Virus genome (UHGV): UHGV-0074791
Length of the DNA stretch: 11,100 bases
Source: a virus
Strand: one strand, 5' to 3'
Position numbers and translations under genes: made by a program. Positions 1-11,100 of this stretch are shown piece by piece; within the stretch, counting starts at the first letter, position 1, and the number at the start of each line of letters is the position of its first letter. The notes under the pieces are model-generated. The model ran no database searches. It saw only the letters and a list, made by a program, of their open reading frames with translations, and was not told where the DNA came from.

Positions 1-417
1 TCAGCAGCCACCCTTGGCACCGTTGGCTGATTTTTTCGCGGCTGCCGTATTCTGTGCAACCGCGGAGGCGTTACGTGACACCTCTTCCACCATCTGCTCA
101 AAGCGGCGCAGTGCCTCCGGTCGGACATCATCCTCCGTCATGGCACCGAGAAAATCATTCAGCGTACCTGGTCTGGAACCTTCATAGACGGTAATGGTCC
201 CGGCATGTGATGGCGGGAATCCCTCCACCAACAGACTGACGCTGTACTGACCATACTCGACGTCCATTGTGTAACGCCCGGCTTCATCCGGGTTTTCTGA
301 GGCCACTGTGTTCACCACCACCGTGGTGCTGTTGCGCCTGGCCTTTAGCTGAATGGTGCAGTTTTGTATCGGCTTACCTGCGCCATCTTTCAGTACACCT
401 GAAATCCGTACTGCCAT
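1..417 (-). CDS. stf: Lambda-like side tail fibre protein (Stf), N-terminal 138 aa; gene continues beyond the left edge of the window
   Basis: ATG is the reverse complement of 415-417 and the frame stays open to position 1. The N-terminus MAVRISGVLKDGAGKPIQNCTIQLKA...YGQYSVSLLVEGFPPSHAGTITVY matches my recollection of the phage lambda Stf N-terminus almost residue for residue. It sits immediately downstream of lom on the same strand, as in the lambda order J-lom-stf. Confidence 0.85.
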   Translation of the reverse strand: MAVRISGVLKDGAGKPIQNCTIQLKARRNSTTVVVNTVASENPDEAGRYTMDVEYGQYSVSLLVEGFPPSHAGTITVYEGSRPGTLNDFLGAMTEDDVRPEALRRFEQMVEEVSRNASAVAQNTAAAKKSANGAKGGC

Positions 418-426
418 ATTCCCCCC

Positions 427-455
427 ACAAAAAAGCCCGCCTGAACCGGCGGGCT
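427..455 (-). terminator. Intrinsic terminator downstream of lom (minus-strand sense)
   Basis: Perfect 7-bp GC-rich stem (435-441 gcccgcc, 448-454 ggcgggc) with loop tgaacc; plus-strand A-run at 429-434 gives a T-run directly after the hairpin on the minus strand. Lies between the lom stop (482) and the stf start (417). Confidence 0.5.
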
Positions 456-481
456 GTCATAACACTGTGTTACCTGGCTAA

Positions 482-1081
482 TCAGAATTTATAACCGACA
501 CCCATGATGAAACCGTCAGTGCGCCAGTCGCCACTGCCGGAGCCTTCATAAGCAATATCAATGGCCACGGATTCGGTCGGGTTAAACTGCACGCCAGCTC
601 CCCACGCCAGAGACGTGTTGCTGTGGCGACCGTCATCACTTCCGGTCAGCACGTCGTGCGTTTTCCCCTTGTTGTCAGTTACGCGGAGATAATCCCCGGA
701 GAAAGTCGACACACGGCTGTAAGCCACACCCGCCATCGCATACGCGCTGAACCATTCATTCACGCGCACAGACGGCCCCGCCATCACGCTGAACCAGCGG
801 TTACGCACGGAATCTTCATGCCAGCGGGTATCGCTGTAATGGGTCAGCTGGCGATTCTTGTCTCCTGCATAGCTGAATGACGTCACCATCCCCAGTGTGT
901 CCGTAAACTCATAACGGTATTTCACGTTAATCCCGTTCAGATCATCACTGCCGGGAACGTTGGTCCGGGCATGAAGATACCCCGCGCTCAGCGTGGACTG
1001 ATGTTCAGATGCCCATGCAGGCGCACCGGATACGGCCAGACAAATGGCTGCGGACAAAATGGCGGCATAAAGTTTACGCAT
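482..1081 (-). CDS. lom: Lom/Ail family outer-membrane beta-barrel protein (lambda Lom-like moron)
   Basis: 199 aa. Signal peptide MRKLYAAILSAAICLAVSGAPAWA followed by the beta-barrel body; C-terminus ...IDIAYEGSGSGDWRTDGFIMGVGYKF is essentially the C-terminus I recall for lambda Lom and the Ail/OmpX/PagC family, ending in the terminal Phe. Positioned between the J-like gene and stf. Confidence 0.9.
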   Translation of the reverse strand: MRKLYAAILSAAICLAVSGAPAWASEHQSTLSAGYLHARTNVPGSDDLNGINVKYRYEFTDTLGMVTSFSYAGDKNRQLTHYSDTRWHEDSVRNRWFSVMAGPSVRVNEWFSAYAMAGVAYSRVSTFSGDYLRVTDNKGKTHDVLTGSDDGRHSNTSLAWGAGVQFNPTESVAIDIAYEGSGSGDWRTDGFIMGVGYKF

Positions 1082-1103
1082 AATTACCTCTCGCTTTTCT
1101 GCA

Positions 1104-1129
1104 ATAAAAAAGGCACCATTTCTGGTGCC
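1104..1129 (-). terminator. Intrinsic terminator between the J-like ORF and lom (minus-strand sense)
   Basis: Stem 1112-1118 ggcacca pairs with 1123-1129 tggtgcc, loop tttc; plus-strand A-run 1106-1111 gives a T-run after the hairpin on the minus strand. Confidence 0.45.
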
Positions 1130-1150
1130 CTTATATGGGTTATAACAATT

Positions 1151-1894
1151 TCAACGAATACTGATGCCGGAAGCGGCTTTTTTGGTCACAATCACCGTAC
1201 AGTCGGTGATATTGCCTGCCCCCTGATTGCCTTTCTGGAAAATCTTAAACTCCAGAGTGACGCTTCCCCTGCCACTCGGCATATCAATAACTGCACTGTA
1301 ACTACCGGGAATGGCCCCTTTAGTTTCTCTGGATGCGATTAATACGCCGTTTTTGCGAACTTCAAAACCATAACCCGTGTATCGCGTGCCTCCTGGGTTA
1401 TTTCCGCTCCCCGGATCGTCATACGCTATACCGTTAAAAATAATGGGCGGAATAATAATCTGGCGGTCAAAGTTATGATCATCGCTGATGGTGACTGTAA
1501 CCGTACCGTTTGGTGTTTCCGTGTTACCCCACGTACCGACTTTTTTCGGGAAGGCTTTTGATACAGCTTTAACGAAATCTCCTCTGACCTGGGTCGCCTC
1601 CAGCATGCCCTTAATCGTACAGTTCTGGTTAATCGTGACATTGTTGAGCGTTCCTGAGTTCGCATTCACACTGCCACTGATATCCGCATTTTTCGCCGTC
1701 AGTCTCCCGTCTGATGTCAGGGAAAATGCCGGAGGATTACCGCCGCTGGTAATGGTGGGGGCCGTCAGGCGTTTCAGGAACACTTCATTCATGAATATCT
1801 GATCGCCCTGACCAACAAACATCGGCTTTGTGTTGCCATTCGCAGGATTAATCATCGCAATCCTGTCTGCTGCCAGCAGCACCTGACTCTGCAT
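1151..1894 (-). CDS. Phage tail protein, probably the C-terminal part of a host-specificity (J-like) central tail fibre; likely a 5'-truncated remnant
   Basis: 247-aa ORF directly upstream of lom on the same strand, the position J occupies in lambdoid phages. Gly, Asn and Thr-rich beta-type sequence ([14 protein letters not shown]..., [10 protein letters not shown]) typical of tail-fibre distal domains. Far too short for a complete J (over 1000 aa), and the next genes upstream are early-region genes on the other strand. Confidence 0.5.
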
Positions 1895-1969
1895 GCCGTC
1901 AGGGGTATTCTCAATACCGGCACCGATATTCCCGCTCCACTGAAACGCCTTCTTCCTGACTATAAACGG

Positions 1970-2230
1970 ATGGAAGAAAAAATAGACGCCGTAATCCGTG
2001 AGAAATACGGGTTACCCCCGGTTATGAGCACGCCCGTGAAATATGCCGATCTCATCATGCTGGCAACTGAACGCCGCGATCTCGGGCTTGATGATGGCTC
2101 TTTCTGGCCTGTACTGGAAGGTATCCCGGCAACAGATATGTTCAAAGTTATTCCACTGGCACCGGGCCATGCCTATGGGATGTTTATGGAACGTTTTAAC
2201 GAGTTATCGGAGTTACGCAAATGCGCATGA
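1970..2230 (+). CDS. Small hypothetical phage early-region protein (86 aa)
   Basis: ATG at 1970. The frame is open upstream to a stop at 1712-1714 but contains no ATG, GTG or TTG before 1970. Its stop overlaps the start of the next gene within atgcgcATGA at 2221-2230. No family recognised. Confidence 0.45.
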
Positions 2231-2583
2231 ATGTTTTCGAAATGGAAGGGTTTCTTCGCGGGAAATGTGTACCGCGAGATCTGAAAGTGAACGAAACAAA
2301 TGCTGAGTACCTGGTACGTAAATTCGACGCGCTTGAAGCTAAATGTGCGGCACTGGAAAACAAAATAATACCAGTGTCAGCTGAACTGCCACCTGCAAAT
2401 GAAAGTGTTCTGTTATTTGATGCTAACGGAGAAGGCTGGCTAATTGGCTGGCGTTCTCTCTGGTACACCTGGGGACAAAAAGAAACCGGAGAATGGCAGT
2501 GGACATTTCAGGTCGGGGACCTTGAAAACGTCAATATCACTCACTGGGCAGTAATGCCGAAAGCACCGGAGAATAAGAAATGA
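2221..2583 (+). CDS. DUF551-family phage protein (true start may be the ATG at 2227)
   Basis: Sequence ...IIPVSAELPPANESVLLFDANGEGWLIGW...ITHWAVMPKAPE fits the DUF551 pattern as I recall it (conserved P-E, a Trp-rich core, and THW-x-x-P-x-x-P near the C-terminus), common in the int-proximal region of enterobacterial prophages. Coupled to the upstream gene by an ATGA overlap. Confidence 0.7.
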   Translation: MRMNVFEMEGFLRGKCVPRDLKVNETNAEYLVRKFDALEAKCAALENKIIPVSAELPPANESVLLFDANGEGWLIGWRSLWYTWGQKETGEWQWTFQVGDLENVNITHWAVMPKAPENKK

Positions 2584-2795
2584 GCGTGATAAAAACTCAT
2601 ACAGGAATTGTTATTACCCGAAACGGTCCGCAGGTAAAAAAACTGCACCAGACAAAGCGGATGTGGGTCGTCGGAAAAAACGAGTTTTACCACAAAGAAA
2701 CCGGACGCCGCCACTTTGCAGAAAATACGCGCCGCCGACTGCTCCTGGACAGCATCAGGCCAATTAAACAGGTAGCAACCAGAGAACAAAATTAA
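2580..2795 (+). CDS. Small basic hypothetical phage protein (71 aa)
   Basis: ORF starts at the ATG overlapping the stop of the DUF551 gene (2580-2583) and continues the same-strand gene string towards xis-int. No family recognised. Confidence 0.45.
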   Translation: MSVIKTHTGIVITRNGPQVKKLHQTKRMWVVGKNEFYHKETGRRHFAENTRRRLLLDSIRPIKQVATREQN

Positions 2796-2842
2796 TTATC
2801 AGGACTGAAATTTGATATTACTGCCCGTGTGCAGCGGGCTAA

Positions 2843-3061
2843 GTGGAGAAACATATGCTGAACCTCGATTGTGTTCCTATCTCAACTTATTGCAAAGAAA
2901 CTGGCGAAACTCCTGAAGCAATAAACAAACGTGTACAGCGCGGTGTTTGGCGTGAAGGTGTTCAGGTTTTAAAGGTTGAAGGCGTTAAGGAGAGGTGGAT
3001 TGATCTTAGTGAGGTTGCAAAATGGGCCAGACAAAACTGCTCAAACTACCGCGCGGCGTAA
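2843..3061 (+). CDS. xis: Excisionase-like protein (recombination directionality factor)
   Basis: 72-aa protein immediately upstream of, and overlapping by 40 bp, the tyrosine integrase gene, the classic xis-int arrangement. AGGAGA-like ribosome-binding site at about 2829-2834. Small basic protein with a helix-rich DNA-binding character (KETGETPEAINKRVQRGVW). Confidence 0.6.
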   Translation: MEKHMLNLDCVPISTYCKETGETPEAINKRVQRGVWREGVQVLKVEGVKERWIDLSEVAKWARQNCSNYRAA

Positions 3062-4191
3062 CAATCAGAAAACACCGTCAGGGAGAAACGATCAATATAA
3101 CTTTCACCTACAAAGGAGTTAAATGTCGTGAGCCACTTTCCAATCTGGAAGTAACACCAAAGAACATTAAATACGCCGAGCGTACACTCGGCGAAATTCA
3201 TAATAAGATCGAAAGGGGAACATTCATTTATGCGGAATATTTTCCCCGTTCTGCTCGTTTGAAAATTTTTGGTAATGCTGCTGCAGGCAAAACGGTAAAA
3301 ATGTACCTGGACGAATACCTTGAAATCTGCGAAACGAGAAAACTTTCACCATCTACGATTGGTGGTTATAAAAAATGCCGTAGTGCGTTAGCCTCACTCC
3401 ACATTTGCCCTGCAAGTGAATTAACACCAGCAATCCTGAAAGCGTGGATTCAAAGCCAGAAAACGACCTTAAAAACAATTCGCAACCAGTTATCTTTCCT
3501 GCGGTCAGCACTTGATGAAGCCGTAACCGATGGGGTACTTCAAATTAACCCCGTATCGTTGGTAACTGCTTCGCGCTACCAAAGTGATAAGTCAGAAGCA
3601 GAAAGCAGCTACGTGGTTGATCCGCTATCACCAGCAGAAGTTGATGCATTACTAGCAGCAGCCGGAAACAAACAATGGGAGAATCTGTTCCGGTTCGCTA
3701 TACATACAGGCCTGCGTAGTTCTGAATTATGTGCCCTTCGATGGCGTGATATCGACTTTGTTGGAAAAACTGCCCATGTCCAGAGCGCAAGTGTTGTCGG
3801 TGTTATCAAAGGAACAAAGACAAAAGCCGGTACTCGTAAAGTCGAACTGACAGAAGATGCAATGTTGGCGCTGATAAATCAGAAGCCATTTACATTCATG
3901 AAGGATGCTACAGTCTTTGAAGATCCAAAGACCAATAAGCCTTGGGCAAGTGCTGATGCAATTAGAAAAAAAGCATGGGTGCCAACATTGCGAAAAGCAG
4001 GTATTCGTTACAGAAACCCATATCAAACCAGACATACATTCGCCACCAGCCATATCAGCCGGGGAGCAAACCTGTTTTGGCTTGCGGTTCAAATGGGTCA
4101 TAAAGGACCAGAGATGTTATTTAGACATTATGGCTCATACCTCAAAGAATATGATGGAAATACATCTTTAAATAGAAAAAATAGATATTAG
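3022..4191 (+). CDS. int: Lambda-family tyrosine integrase (site-specific recombinase)
   Basis: 389 aa. N-terminal arm-binding-like region, then a catalytic domain with R (LRSSEL), H-x-x-R (RHTFATSHISRG), a later His (MGHKG) and the Tyr nucleophile (RHYGSYL). Overlaps xis as in lambda. Confidence 0.9.
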   Translation: MGQTKLLKLPRGVTIRKHRQGETINITFTYKGVKCREPLSNLEVTPKNIKYAERTLGEIHNKIERGTFIYAEYFPRSARLKIFGNAAAGKTVKMYLDEYLEICETRKLSPSTIGGYKKCRSALASLHICPASELTPAILKAWIQSQKTTLKTIRNQLSFLRSALDEAVTDGVLQINPVSLVTASRYQSDKSEAESSYVVDPLSPAEVDALLAAAGNKQWENLFRFAIHTGLRSSELCALRWRDIDFVGKTAHVQSASVVGVIKGTKTKAGTRKVELTEDAMLALINQKPFTFMKDATVFEDPKTNKPWASADAIRKKAWVPTLRKAGIRYRNPYQTRHTFATSHISRGANLFWLAVQMGHKGPEMLFRHYGSYLKEYDGNTSLNRKNRY

Positions 4192-4223: not shown

Positions 4224-4913
4224 TCATATCAATGTATGTTGAATAGAATAATTTTCAACACCATAATGAGATGCTAATTTTGATAAAAAACCATCCTTTG
4301 AAGATAAAACATCATCTAACATATTTCGTCTTACTAAAGAGACAAAAAGTGCAGCTGCTCTGGCTTGGCAATTAATAGATTTCGCTGGATTAAATTCAAT
4401 ATCAGTAAACCCATCAAAATTTAATAGATGGAGTGCTAGATTTTTGTTTTGATTGAGCGCACTCAAATATAACCAATCATAAAAAGCAGTCCTGGGGACA
4501 ATGGGCCATATTGTATTATAAAATTTGAAGTTAACTAATCCCCCAGATTCCTTTAATCTCATATCTTTTTTTGCTTCTATCGAGCTTTTATCTAAGATAT
4601 CGACATATGGTCCTCCCATTTCAAATACTTTACTTGCTTGAAATGCAGATTCAACTGTAAACTCTTTCCCAAGTCTTTTCGTCTTTATTCTTAGATTAAA
4701 TGCACTAAGTGCTACCCCCAGCGCATCTTCGGATTTACTAGAAATTTCCAACAAAGAGTTCAATCCCTGCTCATTCGCTGCTGTATGTAACGCCCTGATC
4801 GATTTTTGCTTTTGCGTTTTAGACATACCAGGAGCCCAAGGAAAATCCACATCCTTCGTGATCGATAGTAAGTTCCCTGCGTTTGTAGGGACGAAAACAG
4901 GTCTAACAGCCAT
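4224..4913 (-). CDS. Hypothetical 229-aa protein, second gene of the DarT-like operon; candidate antitoxin or ADP-ribose-removing partner of unrecognised family
   Basis: ATG (reverse complement of 4911-4913) lies 3 nt after the stop of the upstream DarT-like gene, with a ribosome-binding site (AGGA) embedded in that gene's 3' end. I see no macrodomain signature (no GGGV-type glycine loop) and no clear NADAR-like motifs. AT-rich codon usage matches its partner. Confidence 0.6.
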   Translation of the reverse strand: MAVRPVFVPTNAGNLLSITKDVDFPWAPGMSKTQKQKSIRALHTAANEQGLNSLLEISSKSEDALGVALSAFNLRIKTKRLGKEFTVESAFQASKVFEMGGPYVDILDKSSIEAKKDMRLKESGGLVNFKFYNTIWPIVPRTAFYDWLYLSALNQNKNLALHLLNFDGFTDIEFNPAKSINCQARAAALFVSLVRRNMLDDVLSSKDGFLSKLASHYGVENYSIQHTLI

Positions 4914-4916
4914 AAC

Positions 4917-5540
4917 TTATCCTAAATAATAATGCCTCTGAGAATAAAGTGTTCTAGCATTAAGATTATCATAATATCTCTGTATTGTCTGTGGATATAA
5001 TCTCTTGAAATGTTCAGCAGATTCTTTGTTAGGGTGAAAAGTGCTTATAATATATGAGGGAGGAATTTTTTCAAATACCAGTATTTCAGCTTGAACATCC
5101 GTCGTATACTCACTTGGAAGGTTTACATCTCTCTGAATCCCAAAAACATTCTCTGAAAACAAAGCACTAAATGCCTCAGCTCCTTTCATCAAATCAAGAT
5201 TTATAAAACGAACGTTATTCGAAGCTGCGTTGGTAGGATAAAAAGCGCAATCCTTAGCCCAAAGAACAGATGGATTGATTTCTAATATAACCCAGTCCCC
5301 AGGCTTTAAACATCTATATTTATAAAACATTTTTGCATTAGGGTAACTTACGGACAAACAAATCGCATCTGGATGACCATCAATCCTTTCTTCATCATTA
5401 CAATTATATTCATTATTTTCATTATCAAGTTCTGAACGAGACATAAGGCCATTATCTAAAATGGAAGTTAGATTATCGCTATGTGTAAAATGAAACAAGC
5501 TACGAATATTACGTTGCTGAATTATTTCCTGTATTGTCAT
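4917..5540 (-). CDS. DarT-like (DUF4433) ADP-ribosyltransferase, putative DNA-targeting toxin
   Basis: 207 aa. N-terminal LFHFTHSDNLTSILDNGL resembles the DarT hallmark (YHFTH-x-NL-x-SIL); a C-proximal QAEILV segment fits the catalytic-glutamate motif of the DarT ART fold. Size is right for DarT, and it is the first gene of a tightly coupled two-gene operon. Confidence 0.6.
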   Translation of the reverse strand: MTIQEIIQQRNIRSLFHFTHSDNLTSILDNGLMSRSELDNENNEYNCNDEERIDGHPDAICLSVSYPNAKMFYKYRCLKPGDWVILEINPSVLWAKDCAFYPTNAASNNVRFINLDLMKGAEAFSALFSENVFGIQRDVNLPSEYTTDVQAEILVFEKIPPSYIISTFHPNKESAEHFKRLYPQTIQRYYDNLNARTLYSQRHYYLG

Positions 5541-5668: not shown

Positions 5669-5698
5669 ACGCGGGTTCAACTCCCGCCAGCTCCACCA
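5669..5698 (+). other. att core: 30-bp copy of the 3' end of tmRNA (ssrA), ending in CCA; not a full tmRNA gene
   Basis: acgcgggttcaactcccgccagctccacca matches the 3' terminus of E. coli tmRNA (...GGACGCGGGUUCAACUCCCGCCAGCUCCACCA). Sequence upstream of 5669 has no resemblance to the tmRNA body, so this is an integration-site repeat rather than the gene. Confidence 0.8.
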
Positions 5699-5734
5699 AA
5701 TATTGATGTACTGAAGTTCAGTAAAGTCTACTAA

Positions 5735-5766
5735 GCCCGCACAGCACAAGCTCTGCGGGCTTTTTT
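5735..5766 (+). terminator. Intrinsic terminator downstream of the ssrA-derived att core
   Basis: Stem 5735-5741 gcccgca pairs with 5754-5760 tgcgggc, followed directly by tttttt at 5761-5766. Confidence 0.55.
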
Positions 5767-5823
5767 ACGTCTATTGTAGTCTAGTGAGAATTGCTGAGAA
5801 CTACGAGTTATGGCACCCTGAAT

Positions 5824-5860
5824 GGGACCCACGAAGATGGGTCCTAAAATCGAGGGTCCC
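5824..5860. promoter_or_regulatory. Three copies of a palindromic GGGWCC(C) element at exact 15-bp spacing in the leader of the P4-type integrase
   Basis: gggaccc at 5824-5830, gggtcc at 5839-5844 and gggtccc at 5854-5860, ending 5 bp before the integrase ATG. Confidence 0.3.
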
Positions 5861-5864
5861 AAAC

Positions 5865-7094
5865 ATGGCCAAAATCGCTAAGAAGCTCACTGACACTGAA
5901 ATCAAAAGCACCAAACCTGCCGAAAAAGAGGTTAACCTTTTTGACGGCGATGGTTTGCTGTTGCGAATCGCTCCCCTGGCGAAGGGAGGGAAGAAAAATT
6001 GGTATTTCAGATATGCAGTGCCTGTGACCAAAAAGCGAACTAAGGTGAGCTTAGGAACCTATCCTCACCTTACACTTGCGAAGGCACGAGCTTTACGTGA
6101 TGAATACTTGTCGTTGCTTACAAATGGTATAGACCCCCAAGTTCATAACAACCAAAAAGCCAATGCACTGAAAGATGCCACGGAACATACATTTCAAGCA
6201 GTAGCCAAGAAGTGGCTTGATGAGAAAGTCAAAACGTCAGGCATCTCCCAAGATCATGCTAACGACATCTGGCGAAGCCTAGAGAGAAATATCTTTTCCA
6301 CATTGGGTGATACCCCAATTAAGGAGATTCGCCCTAAAATGCTTAAACAGCATTTAGAACCCATAGAAAAACGAGGTGTCCTTGAAACACTTCGCCGCAT
6401 CATATCCCGCCTGAATGAAATTTTCCGCTATGCAGCAACAGAAGAACTCATAGAATTCAACCCGGCAGACAACCTGGGGCAACGGTTCAGCAAGCCAAAA
6501 AAACAGAATATGCCAGCATTACCCCCTTCCGAACTCCCTCGCTTCTTGGTTGCTCTAAACAATGCTTCTATCCGTTTGGAAACAAGGCTACTGATTGAGT
6601 GGCAACTTCTCACATGGGTTCGCCCAGGTGAAGCTGTTCGCACAAGATGGTCAGATATTGATATTGAAACTGGCATGTGGAACATCCCGGCGGAGTTTAT
6701 GAAAATGAAGAAGCCTCACAAAGTTCCACTGAGCAAAGAAGCTTTGCGAGTTTTGGATTTAATGAAAGTCATCAGCGGGCATAGAGAGTGGGTGTTCCCC
6801 AGTATCAAAGCTCCACTCAATCACATGCATGAACAAACAGCTAATGCGGCCATAATCCGTATGGGTTTCGGAGGTGAGCTTGTAGCTCACGGTATGCGAT
6901 CCATTGCTAGAACGGCTGCTGAGGAGTCTGGCAAGTTTAGGACTGATGTCTTAGAAGCCGCCCTTGCCCACTCGAAGAAAGATGAAATAATTGCAGCCTA
7001 CAATCGTGCAGAGTATCTCACTGAACGGGTGGTTCTCATGCAATGGTGGAGTGACTATGTTTCGTCTCAAAAATGCAAAGTTATTGCCGCATAA
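5865..7094 (+). CDS. int: P4-type tyrosine integrase (N-terminal arm-binding domain plus phage-integrase catalytic domain)
   Basis: Start chosen at the MAKIAKKLTDTEIKSTKP... ATG (5865), typical of P4-family integrases, rather than the upstream ATG at 5784. Contains F-DGDGL, H-x-x-R (AHGMRSIART) and a Tyr nucleophile region (AAYNRAEYL). Lies directly downstream of the tmRNA 3'-end repeat, as CP4-57 intA does in E. coli K-12. Confidence 0.9.
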   Translation: MAKIAKKLTDTEIKSTKPAEKEVNLFDGDGLLLRIAPLAKGGKKNWYFRYAVPVTKKRTKVSLGTYPHLTLAKARALRDEYLSLLTNGIDPQVHNNQKANALKDATEHTFQAVAKKWLDEKVKTSGISQDHANDIWRSLERNIFSTLGDTPIKEIRPKMLKQHLEPIEKRGVLETLRRIISRLNEIFRYAATEELIEFNPADNLGQRFSKPKKQNMPALPPSELPRFLVALNNASIRLETRLLIEWQLLTWVRPGEAVRTRWSDIDIETGMWNIPAEFMKMKKPHKVPLSKEALRVLDLMKVISGHREWVFPSIKAPLNHMHEQTANAAIIRMGFGGELVAHGMRSIARTAAEESGKFRTDVLEAALAHSKKDEIIAAYNRAEYLTERVVLMQWWSDYVSSQKCKVIAA

Positions 7095-7156
7095 CTCTCC
7101 CATGATGGATTAACTATCTTGATTTAGTTAAAGAATTAATAATCACACCATTAACC

Positions 7157-7206
7157 TATGTGGACTAAGCATAGCCATTTACAAATGGGGACATTGAGTC
7201 CACATA
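7157..7206. repeat. 50-bp imperfect palindrome with a nested central palindrome; candidate recombinase or regulator binding site
   Basis: Outer arms tatgtggact (7157-7166) and agtccacata (7197-7206) are a perfect 10-bp inverted repeat; 18 of 25 positions are symmetric overall; the centre ccatttacaaatgg is itself palindromic. No T-run follows, so it does not look like a terminator. Confidence 0.35.
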
Positions 7207-7376
7207 ACGAAAGCTGTCGGTCATATCAGCTAAATAATTCACATCTCTTCTCGATTATCATACACCTCGAAGATCTACCAAATTCGCTCTAATCAATGAT
7301 AAAACAGTTGAATTCGGTTGAAATTTGATCAATTTTATCCACTACATTGTATTGAATCATCCATGAGGTTTCGTGC

Positions 7377-8933
7377 ATGGCTAGCGAAAATGACAAAAAT
7401 CATAGAGTTAGGGTCGCGCAGTACTTGAGGATGTCTACCGACCATCAGCAATATTCTTTACATAATCAGTCCGAATATATCAAAGATTATGCTGAAAAGA
7501 ACAATATGGAAATCGCTTATACCTACGATGATGCAGGTAAGAGCGGAGTCAGTATCATAGGCCGGCATTCTTTGCAGCAGTTACTTAGTGATGTAGAACA
7601 AAAGAAAATAGATATACAGGCTGTATTATTTTATGATGTGAGCCGTTTTGGTCGTTTTCAAAATAGTGATGAAGCGGCATATTATTCCTTTCTATTTGAG
7701 AGAAATGGTGTAGATCTTATATATTGTTCCGAACCTATACCCACTAAAGATTTCCCTTTAGAGTCCTCTGTTATACTGAATATAAAAAGATCTAGTGCTG
7801 CATATCACAGCAGGAATCTATCTGATAAGGTATTTATAGGGCAAGTAAATTTAATAAAGCTTGGTTATCATCAAGGCGGTATGGCTGGTTATGGGCTGAG
7901 ACGTCTTTTAGTAGACGAAAATGGCATAGCTAAAGAAATATTGAGTTTCCGCAAAAGAAAGAGTATTCAAACAGATAGGGTAATATTAATTCCGGGACCA
8001 AAAAATGAAATAAAAATTGTAAATAGAATATATGATCTCTTTATAGATAATAACGTCCCAGAATTCATTATTGCTGAGAGATTAAATGAACAGAACATAC
8101 CTGCAGAAAATGGAACATTATGGACTCGTGCAAAAATACATCAAATTTTGACAAATGAAAAATATATTGGAAACAACATATATAACAAAACCTCATCTAA
8201 ATTAAAAAGTAGGCTTGTAAAAAACCCCAAACATGAATGGGTTAGATGTGACAAGGCATATAAACCTATTATTTCAAAGAAAAAATACAATAAAGCTCAA
8301 GAAATAATTCAGCTCCGATCCATTCATTTGACTAATGAAGATCTATTAGAAAAACTAAAACAAAAATTAGAATCTAATGGAAAACTATCAGGCTTTATCA
8401 TTGATGAAGATGATACAGGCCCTTCATCTTCTGTTTATAGAACCCGATTTGGTGGTCTTTTAAGAGCATATACTTTGATTGGTTATAAGCCAGAACATGA
8501 TTACAGCTATATCCAAATAAATGAAGCACTAAGATCATTTTACTCAGGCATAATTGAGGATTTTAAGGGGGAAATTTTAAAAAGCAACTGCTATATAGAC
8601 GAATATAAATATGCACCAATGCTTTACATCAATGATGAGTTTTTAATTTCCGTCCTTATTACTAAATGCACACATATGAAATCGGGTAAACTCAGATGGA
8701 AAGTCCGGTTTGATAACTCACAGAAAGCAGACATAACAATTGTTATACGAATGGATTCACAAAATATTTCACCACTTGATTTTTATATCATACCAAAGAT
8801 TGAAAACGAATATAGTAAAATGTGGATGACGGAAACAAACAACATTCGATTAGATCTCTATAGATTTGATAATCTGGATAAACTTCTACAAATTATTACT
8901 CGCATGAAAGTGAGGGAACTATATGCTGCCTGA
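7377..8933 (+). CDS. Large serine recombinase (resolvase/invertase-type catalytic domain plus recombinase domain)
   Basis: 518 aa. N-terminal VAQYLRMSTDHQ holds the serine-recombinase catalytic Ser motif (Y-x-R-x-S-T-x-x-Q), followed by DDAGKSG and LFYDVSRFGR motifs of the resolvase domain, then a recombinase-domain-like region (IKIVNRIYDLF..., W-x-x-x-KI-x-QILTNEKYIG). GAGG ribosome-binding site 8 nt before the ATG. Strongly AT-rich. Confidence 0.85.
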   Translation: MASENDKNHRVRVAQYLRMSTDHQQYSLHNQSEYIKDYAEKNNMEIAYTYDDAGKSGVSIIGRHSLQQLLSDVEQKKIDIQAVLFYDVSRFGRFQNSDEAAYYSFLFERNGVDLIYCSEPIPTKDFPLESSVILNIKRSSAAYHSRNLSDKVFIGQVNLIKLGYHQGGMAGYGLRRLLVDENGIAKEILSFRKRKSIQTDRVILIPGPKNEIKIVNRIYDLFIDNNVPEFIIAERLNEQNIPAENGTLWTRAKIHQILTNEKYIGNNIYNKTSSKLKSRLVKNPKHEWVRCDKAYKPIISKKKYNKAQEIIQLRSIHLTNEDLLEKLKQKLESNGKLSGFIIDEDDTGPSSSVYRTRFGGLLRAYTLIGYKPEHDYSYIQINEALRSFYSGIIEDFKGEILKSNCYIDEYKYAPMLYINDEFLISVLITKCTHMKSGKLRWKVRFDNSQKADITIVIRMDSQNISPLDFYIIPKIENEYSKMWMTETNNIRLDLYRFDNLDKLLQIITRMKVRELYAA

Positions 8934-9819
8934 AAAAAATGAATTCTCAATAATTCAAATTGAGATTGCAAAAATAAAATTTCTTAACCCACGAACAAGA
9001 AATAAGGTAGTGCATGAAGAAATAAAGGAAAGCATAAAAAAAAGAGGATTAAGCAAGCCAATAAGCGTAATAGCTATTGATGAAGGCGATTTCAAATATG
9101 CTTTAATTTGTGGTCAAGGGAGAATAGAGGCTCTCGTTGCATTAGGTGAAACTATTATTCCAGCAATTATAAGAGATGTATCAGAAGAAGATGCTTACGT
9201 TATGAGTTTAGTTGAAAACATTGCAAGGAGAAGACCACGTTCTAATGAGTTATTACAGGTGATTAAAGACATGAAAATCAGAGGACTTTCAGACTCCGAA
9301 ATAAGTGAGATTACTGGATATTCATCGAACTGGGTGAGCAGTATTAATATGCTACTTGATAAGGGAGAGCATAAACTTCTCTCAGCAGTCGAACGGGGTA
9401 ATTTGCCTCTGTATCTCGCAGTGCAATTTGCAAGATGTGAAACTGAGGAAGCACAAGATATTCTTACCGAAGCATATGATAAAAAATTAATAAAAAGTCG
9501 GGACATTATAAAGATAAAACACATTCTAAATCAAAGAACAGTTGGGAATAAAGGTGCAAAAGCAGCCGGATTTTATTATCACAAACCATCAAAAAGGATG
9601 ACTGCAGAGGAGTTGATTGAGCTTTATGAAAATAGTATCGCTGAACATAAATCTGTTTATAACAACTCAAAATTCATAAAAACCAACCTACTAATAGTAA
9701 ATGAGATTTTTAACATCATAATGATGAATAAAAGCTTTCAACATATACTTGAACAAGAGAATCTTTCAGAACTACCATCTCAGATATTAACCCCAGTAAA
9801 CAAAGAGGTATTAAAATGA
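8923..9819 (+). CDS. ParB/Srx-fold N-terminal domain protein (ParB-like), paralogue 1
   Basis: 298 aa. ISVIAIDEGDFKYALICGQGRIEALVALGETIIPAIIRDV...SLVENIARRRPRS follows the ParB N-terminal domain pattern (Pfam ParBc, PF02195) with arginine-rich box-III-like ENIARRR, but box II is GQGR rather than canonical GERR. Start overlaps the recombinase stop by 11 bp; GAGGG ribosome-binding site upstream. Confidence 0.75.
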   Translation: MLPEKNEFSIIQIEIAKIKFLNPRTRNKVVHEEIKESIKKRGLSKPISVIAIDEGDFKYALICGQGRIEALVALGETIIPAIIRDVSEEDAYVMSLVENIARRRPRSNELLQVIKDMKIRGLSDSEISEITGYSSNWVSSINMLLDKGEHKLLSAVERGNLPLYLAVQFARCETEEAQDILTEAYDKKLIKSRDIIKIKHILNQRTVGNKGAKAAGFYYHKPSKRMTAEELIELYENSIAEHKSVYNNSKFIKTNLLIVNEIFNIIMMNKSFQHILEQENLSELPSQILTPVNKEVLK

Positions 9820-10712
9820 TTCAGATACGTTTTGGCGATAATTTTATTTACCTGGAAACTAATAAGTTAATTCCATCTAAGGAATTATTAGAAAACGTAA
9901 AGCGAAGCCATAAATATCATCAAATAGTTACCTCTATCGAAAGCTTAGGTATTATTGAACCAATAATAGTATTCTATGACAAAGATAAAGATGTCACTAA
10001 GATACTTGATGGCCATTTAAGGGTTGAGGCTTTAAAAGACTTAGGTATAGAAAAAGCTCCATGTATACTTTCGAGCATAGATGATGCTTTCACTCCTAAC
10101 AAACAAGTGAATCATATAAATGTAGTTGAAGAACATAGAATGATAATTAAGTCTCTGGCAAAAGTATCAATTGAAAAACTTAGTGCTGCTTTGGGCATAT
10201 CTGTTGATGCCATAAAAGATAAAGCTAATGTAATGAACGGTATAGATCCAAGTGTGATTGCGAAACTTTCTGATAAACCTATACCTAAGGCTACATTTGA
10301 TGTTTTGAGGAAAATGAAACCAATTCGTCAAATTGAAGCAGTCGGTACAATGATTAATTTTGATAATTATAGTAAAAAATTTGCAATGAGCATCTTGGAT
10401 GCAACACCGGCATCAATGATAGTAAATAAAGGGAAAAACACTCCCTATAAAAAGGACATAAAAAAAACCATACTTCGTCTGGAACAAGAAATGGCAACAA
10501 CTTCGGAAGAAACGAAAAAGCTTCAAACCGAGTATGGTTCAGATATGTTGAAATTCGTTATAATCCAGTCATATATTAATAAATTACTTGGCAATTCTAA
10601 AGTTCTTCATTGGTTCTTAGAAAACGAGGTTGATTATCTTAATGAGTTAAAAAGAATTTCTAGAATAAATTCTTTGGATGATAAGACTCTTACTGAAAAC
10701 AGCAAGTCATAG
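9816..10712 (+). CDS. ParB-like domain protein, paralogue 2 (more divergent)
   Basis: 298 aa, same length as paralogue 1. IESLGIIEPIIVFYDKDKDVTKILDGHLRVEALKDLGIEKAPCIL resembles the ParB N-terminal domain with DGHLR in place of GERR, followed by a helix-turn-helix-like segment (LSAALGISVDAIKDKA). ATGA start-stop overlap with the upstream gene and an AGAGG ribosome-binding site. Confidence 0.65.
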   Translation: MIQIRFGDNFIYLETNKLIPSKELLENVKRSHKYHQIVTSIESLGIIEPIIVFYDKDKDVTKILDGHLRVEALKDLGIEKAPCILSSIDDAFTPNKQVNHINVVEEHRMIIKSLAKVSIEKLSAALGISVDAIKDKANVMNGIDPSVIAKLSDKPIPKATFDVLRKMKPIRQIEAVGTMINFDNYSKKFAMSILDATPASMIVNKGKNTPYKKDIKKTILRLEQEMATTSEETKKLQTEYGSDMLKFVIIQSYINKLLGNSKVLHWFLENEVDYLNELKRISRINSLDDKTLTENSKS

Positions 10713-10954
10713 TCATGGTTTTATATAGCCTAAATAAACCAAGAAGTATACTTACACAACGACCTTCACGCCGAAGAAGCTGTCAGATACGCCAGCAACC
10801 AAAGCATTACGTTTAAGTGTCAGTCATTGATACGAAGGGATAACTGCGTATCAGCAGCCGGACATTGAGTCGAATAAAGGCTGGTAGAGAGGGACAGTTC
10901 TGTGTCACCGGGAGATTCGTCAGAAACATCAGCGGCAGAACAGATGAACCAGCA

Positions 10955-11100
10955 GGTAATGGTCCCAACTTATTGATAGTGTTTTATGTTCAGATAATGC
11001 CCGATGACTTTGTCATGCAGCTCCACCGATTTTGAGAACGACAGCGACTTCCGTCCCAGCCTTGCCAGATGTTGTCTCAGATTCAGATTATGTCGCTCAA
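10955..11100 (-). mobile_element. IS1 insertion sequence, right end (terminal inverted repeat and 3' part of insB); element continues past the right edge
   Basis: Minus-strand sequence from 10990 down to 10955 reads aacataaaacactatcaataagttgggaccattacc, matching the IS1 terminus as I recall it (...CACTATCAATAAGTTGGAGTCATTACC) apart from 2-3 mismatches. The adjacent frame encodes the InsB C-terminus. Confidence 0.85.
10970..11100 (-). CDS. insB: IS1 transposase InsB, C-terminal 43 codons (5' part lies outside the window)
   Basis: Minus-strand translation ...[42 protein letters not shown]-stop is the InsB C-terminus; the stop codon is the reverse complement of 10970-10972. Confidence 0.85.

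Follow-up and report, generated by a model that had tools for sequence, protein, structure and literature searches.

A serine recombinase gene coupled to two ParB-like genes: a candidate recombination module of genomic islands

An 11,100-nucleotide stretch of the virus genome UHGV-0074791 (hereafter, the window) carries, behind a P4-type integrase gene, three overlapping genes encoding a serine recombinase (SR) and two ParB-like proteins (PA and PB). The question raised by this locus is whether such a trio is a passenger of the island in which it lies or part of the machinery that builds the island. An earlier note, made from the sequence of the window, described the trio as cargo of an AT-rich island, and inferred either an integrative element with maintenance functions or a defense system occupying the slot behind the integrase. 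As described below, the trio is located at the outer edge of defense islands linked to tRNA and tmRNA genes, and its role is most likely the recombination or maintenance of these islands, not that of ordinary cargo. The more specific reading preferred here—that is, an island integration or recombination module with ParB-type accessory proteins—is tentative, with a probability estimated at roughly 0.4. The trio consists of known parts in a new combination and is widespread and, as far as the libraries and literature show, apparently undescribed.

Conservation and composition of the trio

The three genes form a translationally coupled unit, and the coordinates, overlaps, G+C content, and Pfam matches all agree with the earlier description of three coupled AT-rich genes with ribosome-binding sites. 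The open reading frames (ORFs) of SR and PA overlap by 11 nt and those of PA and PB by 4 nt (ATGA), a Shine–Dalgarno-like sequence lies upstream of each start (GAGG, GAGGG, and AGAGG, respectively), and the G+C content of the trio is 0.27-0.37, as against 0.44-0.475 for the integrase gene. Co-conservation of the three genes had been set beforehand as a test, and was borne out by a neighborhood survey. In a scan of one genome per species, 360 loci were confirmed and the best 80 were examined; the order SR-PA-PB and the tight linkage were retained in every examined locus with a contig extending far enough upstream (about 75 loci), the sole exception being locus L027. When all flanking ORFs were clustered, the three trio families alone were recurrent, and the next family, tyrosine integrases, was present in 13 loci. 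This arrangement goes far beyond chance expectation.

Trio-bearing hosts include Enterobacterales, Alpha- and Betaproteobacteria, an Acidobacteria metagenome-assembled genome (MAG), and others, and more than 1384 homologues of PB were found. Among 5426 complete Escherichia coli genomes, the trio is present in 619 (11%), always on the chromosome at ssrA, the gene for transfer-messenger RNA (tmRNA), with the E. coli B derivatives T7Express and BL21 among the carriers. Plasmids carry homologous trios as well: 90 were found to do so, most of them large replicons of Alphaproteobacteria, and pAtC58 of Agrobacterium fabrum C58 is among them. Two pairs of diverged trio copies (L041/L069 and L060/L071; 83-88% identity) were each observed on different contigs, and in different contexts, of one MAG. 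At the DNA level, no similarity of the trio to phage and plasmid collections was detected, and literature searches, including those by RefSeq protein accessions, yielded no publication describing it.

The serine-recombinase motifs recognized earlier in the first ORF were confirmed by matches of SR to the Resolvase (PF00239; 2.7e-21) and Recombinase (PF07508; 5.2e-22) models. The catalytic residues are all retained, with R18, S20, D87, R90, and R93 among those invariant in 20-32 homologues, and the SR model aligns structurally with the SPbeta, Bxb1, PhiC31, and A118 integrases over ~330 residues comprising the catalytic and recombinase domains. No zinc ribbon was found in SR, as judged by the lack of both a PF13408 match and a conserved cysteine cluster (C117 and C431 are the sole conserved cysteines), and the coiled-coil motif of serine integrases was also not found. 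The earlier designation of SR as a large serine recombinase is thus appropriate for its catalytic and Recombinase domains, but needs a qualifier because the zinc-ribbon/coiled-coil domain is missing. The combination of the N-terminal integrase fold with another C-terminus indicates that SR is a relative of the large serine recombinases in which the domain for outer half-site recognition and synapsis control has been exchanged.

The C-terminal ~190 aa of SR have no counterpart in any integrase structure, and a structural search with this domain was uninformative. The domain (~190-200 aa) has conserved motifs of its own (G.LSG.IIDE....PSSS.Y..RFG.L..AY), is represented by 1363 clusters at 50% identity, and has a divergent HNH_repeat-like unit at its front and a beta-rich fold, without a structural match, at its end. 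Its first 55 residues occur as 4-7 tandem copies in related recombinases (the homing-endonuclease-associated repeat of Pfam). In three relatives of SR (P0308, P0337, and P0352), the Resolvase and Recombinase domains are followed by several PF18780 repeats in place of the zinc ribbon, which points to a broader group of large serine recombinases whose DNA-binding tail would be built from repeats.

ParB-type N-terminal domains, assigned earlier to both PA and PB, were recovered clearly in the former and weakly in the latter. PA matches ParB_N (3.7e-12), RepB (8.6e-8), and TIGR00180, and contains a helix-turn-helix (HTH) region as well as complete motifs of the cytidine triphosphate (CTP) pocket, namely GQGR (for GERR) and VENIARR (for ENLQR). 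Its best solved relatives are Spo0J and Myxococcus ParB with CTP/CDP, with GQGR and VENIARR aligning to GERR and VENLQRE of Spo0J; the motifs nPR.R, CGqGR.Ea, and SL.EN.ARr are kept in 60 homologues. Judging from these motifs, PA is probably a CTP-competent ParB subunit.

PB matches RepB (2.2e-24), its weak ParB_N match (1.1e-5) being just short of the cut-off. The protein contains a DGHLR motif and an HTH, and its long helical C-terminus is covered by the RepB model; LDGHLR.EA and N95 are invariant across homologues. Noc was matched in a profile search against the PDB, and the AlphaFold2 model of PB (mean predicted local distance difference test score, 77) resembles ParB-CTP, Noc, and KorB, in keeping with a ParB-like fold. 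The features of a ParB pocket are retained in part—that is, DGHLR and N95 are present, but the ENxxR glutamate is not—and the pocket is hence described as degenerate. PA and PB were called paralogous in the earlier note. A remote kinship is indeed supported (30% identity over 63 aa; E 7e-4), but the two are not close duplicates, and constitute two separate orthologous groups across the whole family. Both ParB families are present in PHROGs, where they are annotated solely as of unknown function.

Position of the trio in islands and mobile blocks

Window positions 5669-10954 form a single conserved block in E. coli, Enterobacter, Phytobacter, Leclercia, and Kluyvera. In locus L087 (5493-11692), the block comprises the ssrA end, the integrase gene, the trio, and a non-coding tail of 795 nt, is 97-100% identical across five genera, and ends sharply. 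The P4-type integrase is always co-inherited with the trio in this ssrA-island lineage; ssrA lies directly upstream in L001 and L087, and prophage-free strains show the order smpB-ssrA-int-SR-PA-PB. Past the constant block, the cargo varies: a type I restriction-modification (RM) system, a set encoding a UvrA-like protein, two ThiF proteins, a methylase, and DUF4928, or a set with HNH_5, DUF5677, and DUF6602. In the E. coli island the trio is therefore not cargo as had been proposed, since the cargo starts only after the block made up of integrase, trio, and tail. One of these cargo regions (L083, 12633-19979), encoding a UvrA-like ABC ATPase, two ThiF-family proteins, a DNA cytosine methylase, and DUF4928, looks like an uncharacterized defense-type gene set.

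The tail (L087, 10898-11692) is AT-rich and conserved across genera, contains no ORF longer than 73 aa, and has no Rfam match; between ssrA and hsdM on the island, Rfam matched tmRNA alone. At L087 11553-11572 the tail contains a perfect 20-bp palindrome (CTTCGCTTGTACAAGCGAAG), and three AGAAGCAAGGG-like motif copies lie near its sharp end. The right edge of the E. coli block (L087 11692) was considered as a recombination site and rejected: the homology stops at the 3′ side of a hairpin, not at its center, and IS3 remnants lie next to it. Additional ssrA repeats bracketing the trio as a separate tandem element were not found in E. coli. On the other side of the operon, the leader contains a 50-nt imperfect palindrome and, 55 nt ahead of the SR start, a GATC-centered palindrome, AATTTGATCAATTT, which is a candidate operator or ParB loading site. 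A AAATTGATCAATTT motif (at most one mismatch) occurs 37-56 nt ahead of the SR start in 5 of the ~11 enterobacterial lineages examined; these five lineages are mutually diverged at the protein level, and the motif is found essentially nowhere else in their 11-21 kb loci. A consensus scan for promoters and terminators gave no excess over the shuffled expectation.

Other enterobacterial islands show variations of this layout. The order tRNA-int-trio was observed in L015, L030/L032, and L031, and also in L111-L113 with a Fic gene in between; in L022 and L097 the trio is at the island end opposite the integrase, and in L028 tRNA-Arg is followed directly by the trio, without an integrase. The slot beside the integrase holds either Gabija or the trio, as seen in the sister ssrA islands L104 and L103, respectively. 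Further inside the P4-integrase islands of E. coli, Pantoea, and Erwinia, the cargo includes recurrent His-Xaa-Ser (Hxs) radical-SAM gene sets (L103, 13662-18685; L104, 11432-13411; L030, 9047-13867), which neighbor a TIGR04141/DUF6119 protein in L103 and L030 and Gabija instead in L104.

A 3′ pseudogene fragment of a P4-type integrase was observed right after the trio in four loci (L005, 8947-9231; L006, 4337-4624; L103, 13218-13499; L032, 9114-9566), which represent two independent lineages; exactly 48 nt separate the PB stop from the junction in the E. coli-type lineage. A model in which the trio element integrates into the 3′ ends of P4-type integrase genes and carries a replacement 3′ end was considered but not supported: no fragment lies within 10-20 kb in the common E. 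coli form, the fragment derives from a third integrase lineage, no empty site was found, and tandem islands followed by deletion explain the fragments equally well.

The polarity of the surroundings was surveyed in 57 non-redundant loci. The ORFs on the SR side encode tyrosine integrases (11 of 102) and housekeeping proteins (transporters, LysR regulators, ThyA, fumarase, and AcrB), and those on the PB side encode helicases, methylases, WYL and DUF6119 proteins, transposases, and proteins with strong PADLOC matches, namely ZacC (8e-266), GajB (8e-202), DpdE, and DrmD. In total, 353 PADLOC families were matched on the PB side versus 109 on the SR side. Thus, with host genes on one side and variable cargo on the other, the cassette is located at the edge of variable DNA with the operon pointing toward the cargo, and this constant orientation is not expected of a randomly placed cargo cassette. 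On pAtC58, AbiEii and Fic adjoin the trio, and on a 30-kb Paraburkholderia plasmid with a separate Rep and ParA locus, Abi, toxin-antitoxin (TA), and type I RM genes surround it. No ParA gene adjoins the trio in any annotated neighborhood, and no parS-like or centromere repeat array was found in the flanks, one candidate palindrome being seen there. With the PADLOC-DB 2.0 models, SR gave no match, and PA and PB gave a weak "MTase_II" match over the ParB_N region, which was judged spurious.

Elements with SR as the only recombinase were encountered in Rhodobacteraceae. A 5.0-kb block with the same two ends in several contexts runs from a tRNA-Ser 3′ fragment through ParDE, an HTH gene, and the trio to a 213-nt stretch with a hairpin at its end, the ParDE-like TA pair having been called by reading ORF translations. 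A repeat of the tRNA-Ser 3′ end lies 0.35-1.4 kb upstream of SR in all 14 inspected Rhodobacteraceae loci, often with the same host flank. In L072, the order is host DNA, the repeat, ParDE-HTH-trio, a perfect 38-nt tRNA-Ser repeat (E 2e-17), an inward-facing tyrosine integrase gene, cargo, and tRNA-Ser. The bracketing repeats therefore define the trio element as its own unit of a tandem array, in which SR is the sole recombinase and occupies the position held by the integrase in the next unit. The L050 island, delimited by the repeat and tRNA-Ser, consists entirely of the trio and a fragment of a second serine recombinase. An extension of the tRNA-repeat finding to other G+C-rich clades by 8-mer matching was abandoned on account of too many chance matches.

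The trio is also found within blocks that are not confined to one integration site. A 4.15-kb block, composed of 400 nt, the trio, and 415 nt including an IS256 transposase fragment, was found in four contexts at 94-98% identity, namely between traC and traU of an integrative and conjugative element (ICE) and in three unrelated places, and a 3.7-kb trio block is present at tRNA-Arg with or without an integrase. In its four contexts the 4.15-kb block carries the inverted motif GTCCGCT(C/G)(T/C) at both ends. This motif resembles the ends of IS256-type insertion sequences (ISs); it could represent either attB-like half-sites or IS256-type ends, and is not relied on here. In Enterobacter hormaechei (L108, 56-1781), the block adjoins genes with MC4 (PF20290) and CTD8 (PF20284) domains.

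The features of the window itself are listed in Table 1. The ssrA repeat marks the border between a lambdoid prophage on the left and the trio island, and the prophage and the trio island were therefore integrated in tandem at the tmRNA gene. IS1 here cuts the conserved tail and takes the place of the downstream cargo found in other strains. Between the prophage integrase and the ssrA repeat lie genes for DarT (PF14487) and a DarT1-associated NADAR antitoxin (PF22397; 1.4e-89), whose AT-richness and placement indicate a TA or defense moron at the prophage end.

Table 1. Features of the window, with positions counted from its first nucleotide
Feature	Position	Strand	Basis or remark
SR (serine recombinase), 518 aa	7377-8933	+	ORF list
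PA (ParB-like), 298 aa	8923-9819	+	ORF list
PB (divergent ParB/Noc-like), 298 aa	9816-10712	+	ORF list
P4-type tyrosine integrase	5784-7094	+	Pfam Arm-DNA-bind_3, Phage_int_M, Phage_integrase
ssrA (tmRNA) 3′-end copy, att repeat	5669-5700	+	...GCGGGTTCAACTCCCGCCAGCTCCACCA matches tmRNA end in L087, L001
Operon leader, non-coding	7095-7376	+	Inverted-repeat search
50-nt imperfect palindrome in leader	7157-7206
GATC-centered palindrome in leader	7322-7335
First 242 nt of conserved non-coding tail	10713-10954	+	Cut by IS1; 795 nt in other genomes
IS1	from 10955 (10955-11100 in window)		Starts 242 nt past PB stop
Lambdoid prophage end	1-4191		Stf, Lom, J on - strand
xis of prophage	2843-3061
int of prophage	3022-4191
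DarT and NADAR antitoxin	4224-5540	-	AT-rich

Candidate functions of the trio

On the preferred reading, the trio would form an autonomous module for site-specific recombination, serving small islands as well as cassettes that lie inside other mobile elements. SR would be the catalytic recombinase that integrates or excises the islands; the zinc-ribbon/coiled-coil domain, by which outer att half-sites are normally read and synapsis is controlled, would have been lost from it. By translational coupling, PA and PB would be made in fixed proportion with SR and may together constitute a hetero-oligomeric DNA-binding or clamping partner, with PA being CTP-competent and PB degenerate. Loaded at a site within the conserved flanks, this partner could recognize the recombination site, bring about synapsis, or control directionality, or else keep the excised circle, with CTP acting as the switch. 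The module would occupy the island boundary with SR on the outer side, and cargo, often anti-phage genes, would accumulate on the PB side. Of the two inferences in the earlier note, an integrative element with maintenance functions is accordingly the better supported, by the position at island edges, the tRNA-Ser repeats, and the elements with SR as the only recombinase; the strictness of the gene unit, the catalytic constraint on SR, the direct adjacency to tRNA-Arg in L028, and the recurrence of blocks with shared ends in different contexts also speak for it, but no att site or recombination product was found for it.

Several observations weigh against this reading. The enterobacterial island has a P4-type integrase at a tRNA or tmRNA gene, so that SR is not needed for integration there. 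The Rhodobacteraceae repeat upstream of SR is short and degenerate (about 14-30 nt), and the DNA around it is G+C-rich, a setting in which sequences of this kind are not rare. In five loci (L004, L036, L042, L049, and L073), SR is split into two ORFs by a frameshift or stop while PA and PB are intact, which suggests that the recombinase is the first to decay in some islands. The 4.15-kb block, with its IS256-like ends and IS256 fragment, may be an IS-mobilized passenger. Moreover, the limits of the shared blocks vary by lineage, the upstream ones lying between -77 and -1400 and the downstream ones between 0 and +795; this variation is the chief argument for a shuffled cassette as opposed to an element with fixed ends. 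Direct or inverted repeats shared between leader and tail, as att or res candidates, were limited to short repeats at chance level, no palindrome was consistently located at a common position across 21 lineages, and the loci compared yielded neither an att site or crossover point nor an excised circle or empty site.

The main alternative, less probable but serious, regards the trio as a new defense or exclusion system directed against phages or plasmids, in which the ParB pair would sense or load on an invader and SR would be the effector, cutting or scrambling DNA by covalent double-strand-break chemistry. This inference, also made in the earlier note, draws on the defense-rich surroundings—namely the type I RM, UvrA-like/ThiF/methylase, or HNH genes just downstream in E. 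coli-type islands, the genes beside the trio on pAtC58 and the 30-kb plasmid, and components of Zorya, Gabija, Dpd, and DISARM among the neighbors—and on the use of the post-integrase slot that holds Gabija in the sister ssrA island. The location of the trio within the cargo region of an ICE, its compact, AT-rich organization as a co-translated operon that has a leader of its own and is moved as a cassette, and the occurrence of two diverged copies in single genomes would also suit a defense system. However, the trio is constant while the defense genes vary, its constant orientation and edge position are unlike those of a cargo cassette, SR belongs to no PADLOC family, and the methyltransferase matches of PA and PB are spurious. 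Furthermore, we know of no defense system with a serine recombinase as effector; if the trio were such a system, the recombinase effector would itself be new.

Two further explanations assign the ParB pair a role after integration. A maintenance cassette for an excised or plasmid form, with SR resolving multimers and the ParB pair positioning or retaining the circle or silencing genes in the absence of a dedicated ParA, is improbable. Multimer resolution has parallels in ParA of RK2, ResG of SGI1-type islands, and Cre of P1; the domain content (a resolvase-type enzyme with ParB/RepB proteins), the plasmid-borne homologues on mostly large alphaproteobacterial replicons, the ParDE-like pair adjoining the Rhodobacteraceae trio, and the resemblance of PB to KorB and Noc, which work without a classical partition complex, all fit such a role. 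It is nevertheless disfavored by the absence of an adjacent ParA and of a centromere-like repeat array in the flanks, by the separate Rep and ParA loci of the carrier plasmids, and by the mainly chromosomal location of the copies, which lie in islands without a nearby replication gene. Least likely of all is a boundary regulator, by analogy with KorB, in which ParB clamps would load at the island edge, spread, and silence or insulate the cargo while SR flips or deletes the loading site. The cargo is always on the side toward which the operon points, a candidate palindrome is conserved in the leader of five enterobacterial lineages, and the PB model is structurally similar to KorB; yet the idea is built on analogy alone, and, IS insertions aside, no inverted or alternative orientation of flanking segments was seen among hundreds of E. 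coli copies.

Returning to the recombination module, its strongest form would be a zinc-ribbon-less recombinase that is targeted and switched by a heteromeric ParB-type CTP clamp, and that seeds and moves tRNA/tmRNA-linked defense islands and nested cassettes. This strongest form, which would make the trio a new class of recombination machine, is rather improbable. If true, it would be the first link of ParB CTP switches to DNA recombination, and one present in E. coli B/BL21. If SR does depend on such a switch, the control of DNA recombination would join segregation, nucleoid occlusion, and gene silencing among the roles of ParB CTPases, and SR would represent a serine-recombinase lineage that achieves site recognition and synapsis without a zinc ribbon or coiled coil, which is of interest for recombinase engineering. 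Since the cassette marks the constant edge of defense-rich islands in many Proteobacteria, it is also a practical flag for new defense cargo, and is a candidate driver of how defense islands are built. The trio is experimentally accessible: roughly 11% of complete E. coli genomes carry an intact copy, and it is also present in E. coli B derivatives and on pAtC58.

Comparison with known systems

The large serine integrases (SPbeta SprA, Bxb1, PhiC31, A118, and TP901-1) share with SR the catalytic domain, helix E, and the Recombinase domain. In place of their zinc ribbon and coiled coil, SR has a domain of ~200 aa with an HNH_repeat-like start, and it is coupled to two ParB-like genes, unlike the lone integrase gene with a small, separate directionality factor. 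Those integrases use defined attP/attB sites of about 40-50 bp with a central dinucleotide, at which their elements end. Beside SR in Rhodobacteraceae lie tRNA-Ser repeats, which bracket the L072 element; no crossover site was resolved, and no dyad was consistent across lineages.

PA and PB share the ParB N-terminal fold and HTH with the ParB, Noc, and KorB clamps, and PA keeps GxxR and ENxxR. They differ from these clamps in that two dissimilar paralogues, one of them degenerate, lie side by side and are coupled to a recombinase, with neither a ParA nor a parS array; the trio thus lacks both features of a ParABS system. The score of the Noc equivalog model is far under its cut-off for the trio proteins. 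The RepB model (PF07506), derived from repABC replicons, covers the C-terminal two-thirds of PA and PB, but there is no adjacent repA or repC, and the scores are well below the cut-offs for TIGR03454 (29.5 versus 201.5 bits) and PRK13866 (17.3 versus 522). With no adjacent ParA, separate Rep and ParA on the carrier plasmids, no PADLOC match, and no publication found, the view that the trio is not a described partition-resolution cassette of a plasmid or ICE stands.

The parCBA/parDE locus of RK2 and resG of SGI1-type islands are likewise loci of mobile DNA in which a serine recombinase accompanies stability functions, and ParDE lies beside the trio in Rhodobacteraceae. No res-type site array was found in the trio flanks, in contrast to multimer-resolution loci; RK2 ParB is a nuclease of another fold, and the resolvases of RK2 and SGI1-type islands are small or stand-alone. 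In SCCmec, the cargo island is likewise moved by serine recombinases, CcrA and CcrB, and CcrB is the best NCBIfam match of SR, although SR scores only 64.3 bits with the CcrB model and 40.8 bits with the CcrC model against a cut-off of 900 each. SCC is not known to have a ParB partner, and the trio, unlike SCC, has no second recombinase.

The nearest precedent, compared by description, is the integration module of the Dehalococcoides ssrA islands (McMurdie et al., 2011; PMC3146451), which is located at the island edge with the DsiB/DsiA serine recombinases, a ParB-domain gene, and variable cargo behind. It is likewise a serine-recombinase module at an ssrA repeat with a ParB-domain protein, and its six genes encode a 540-aa CcrB-like recombinase, a small second recombinase, a RecF-like protein, a Mom-like protein, and one 210-aa ParBc protein, among others. 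The trio is set apart from this module by its three genes, its two ParB/RepB proteins of 300 aa, and the other C-terminus of its recombinase.

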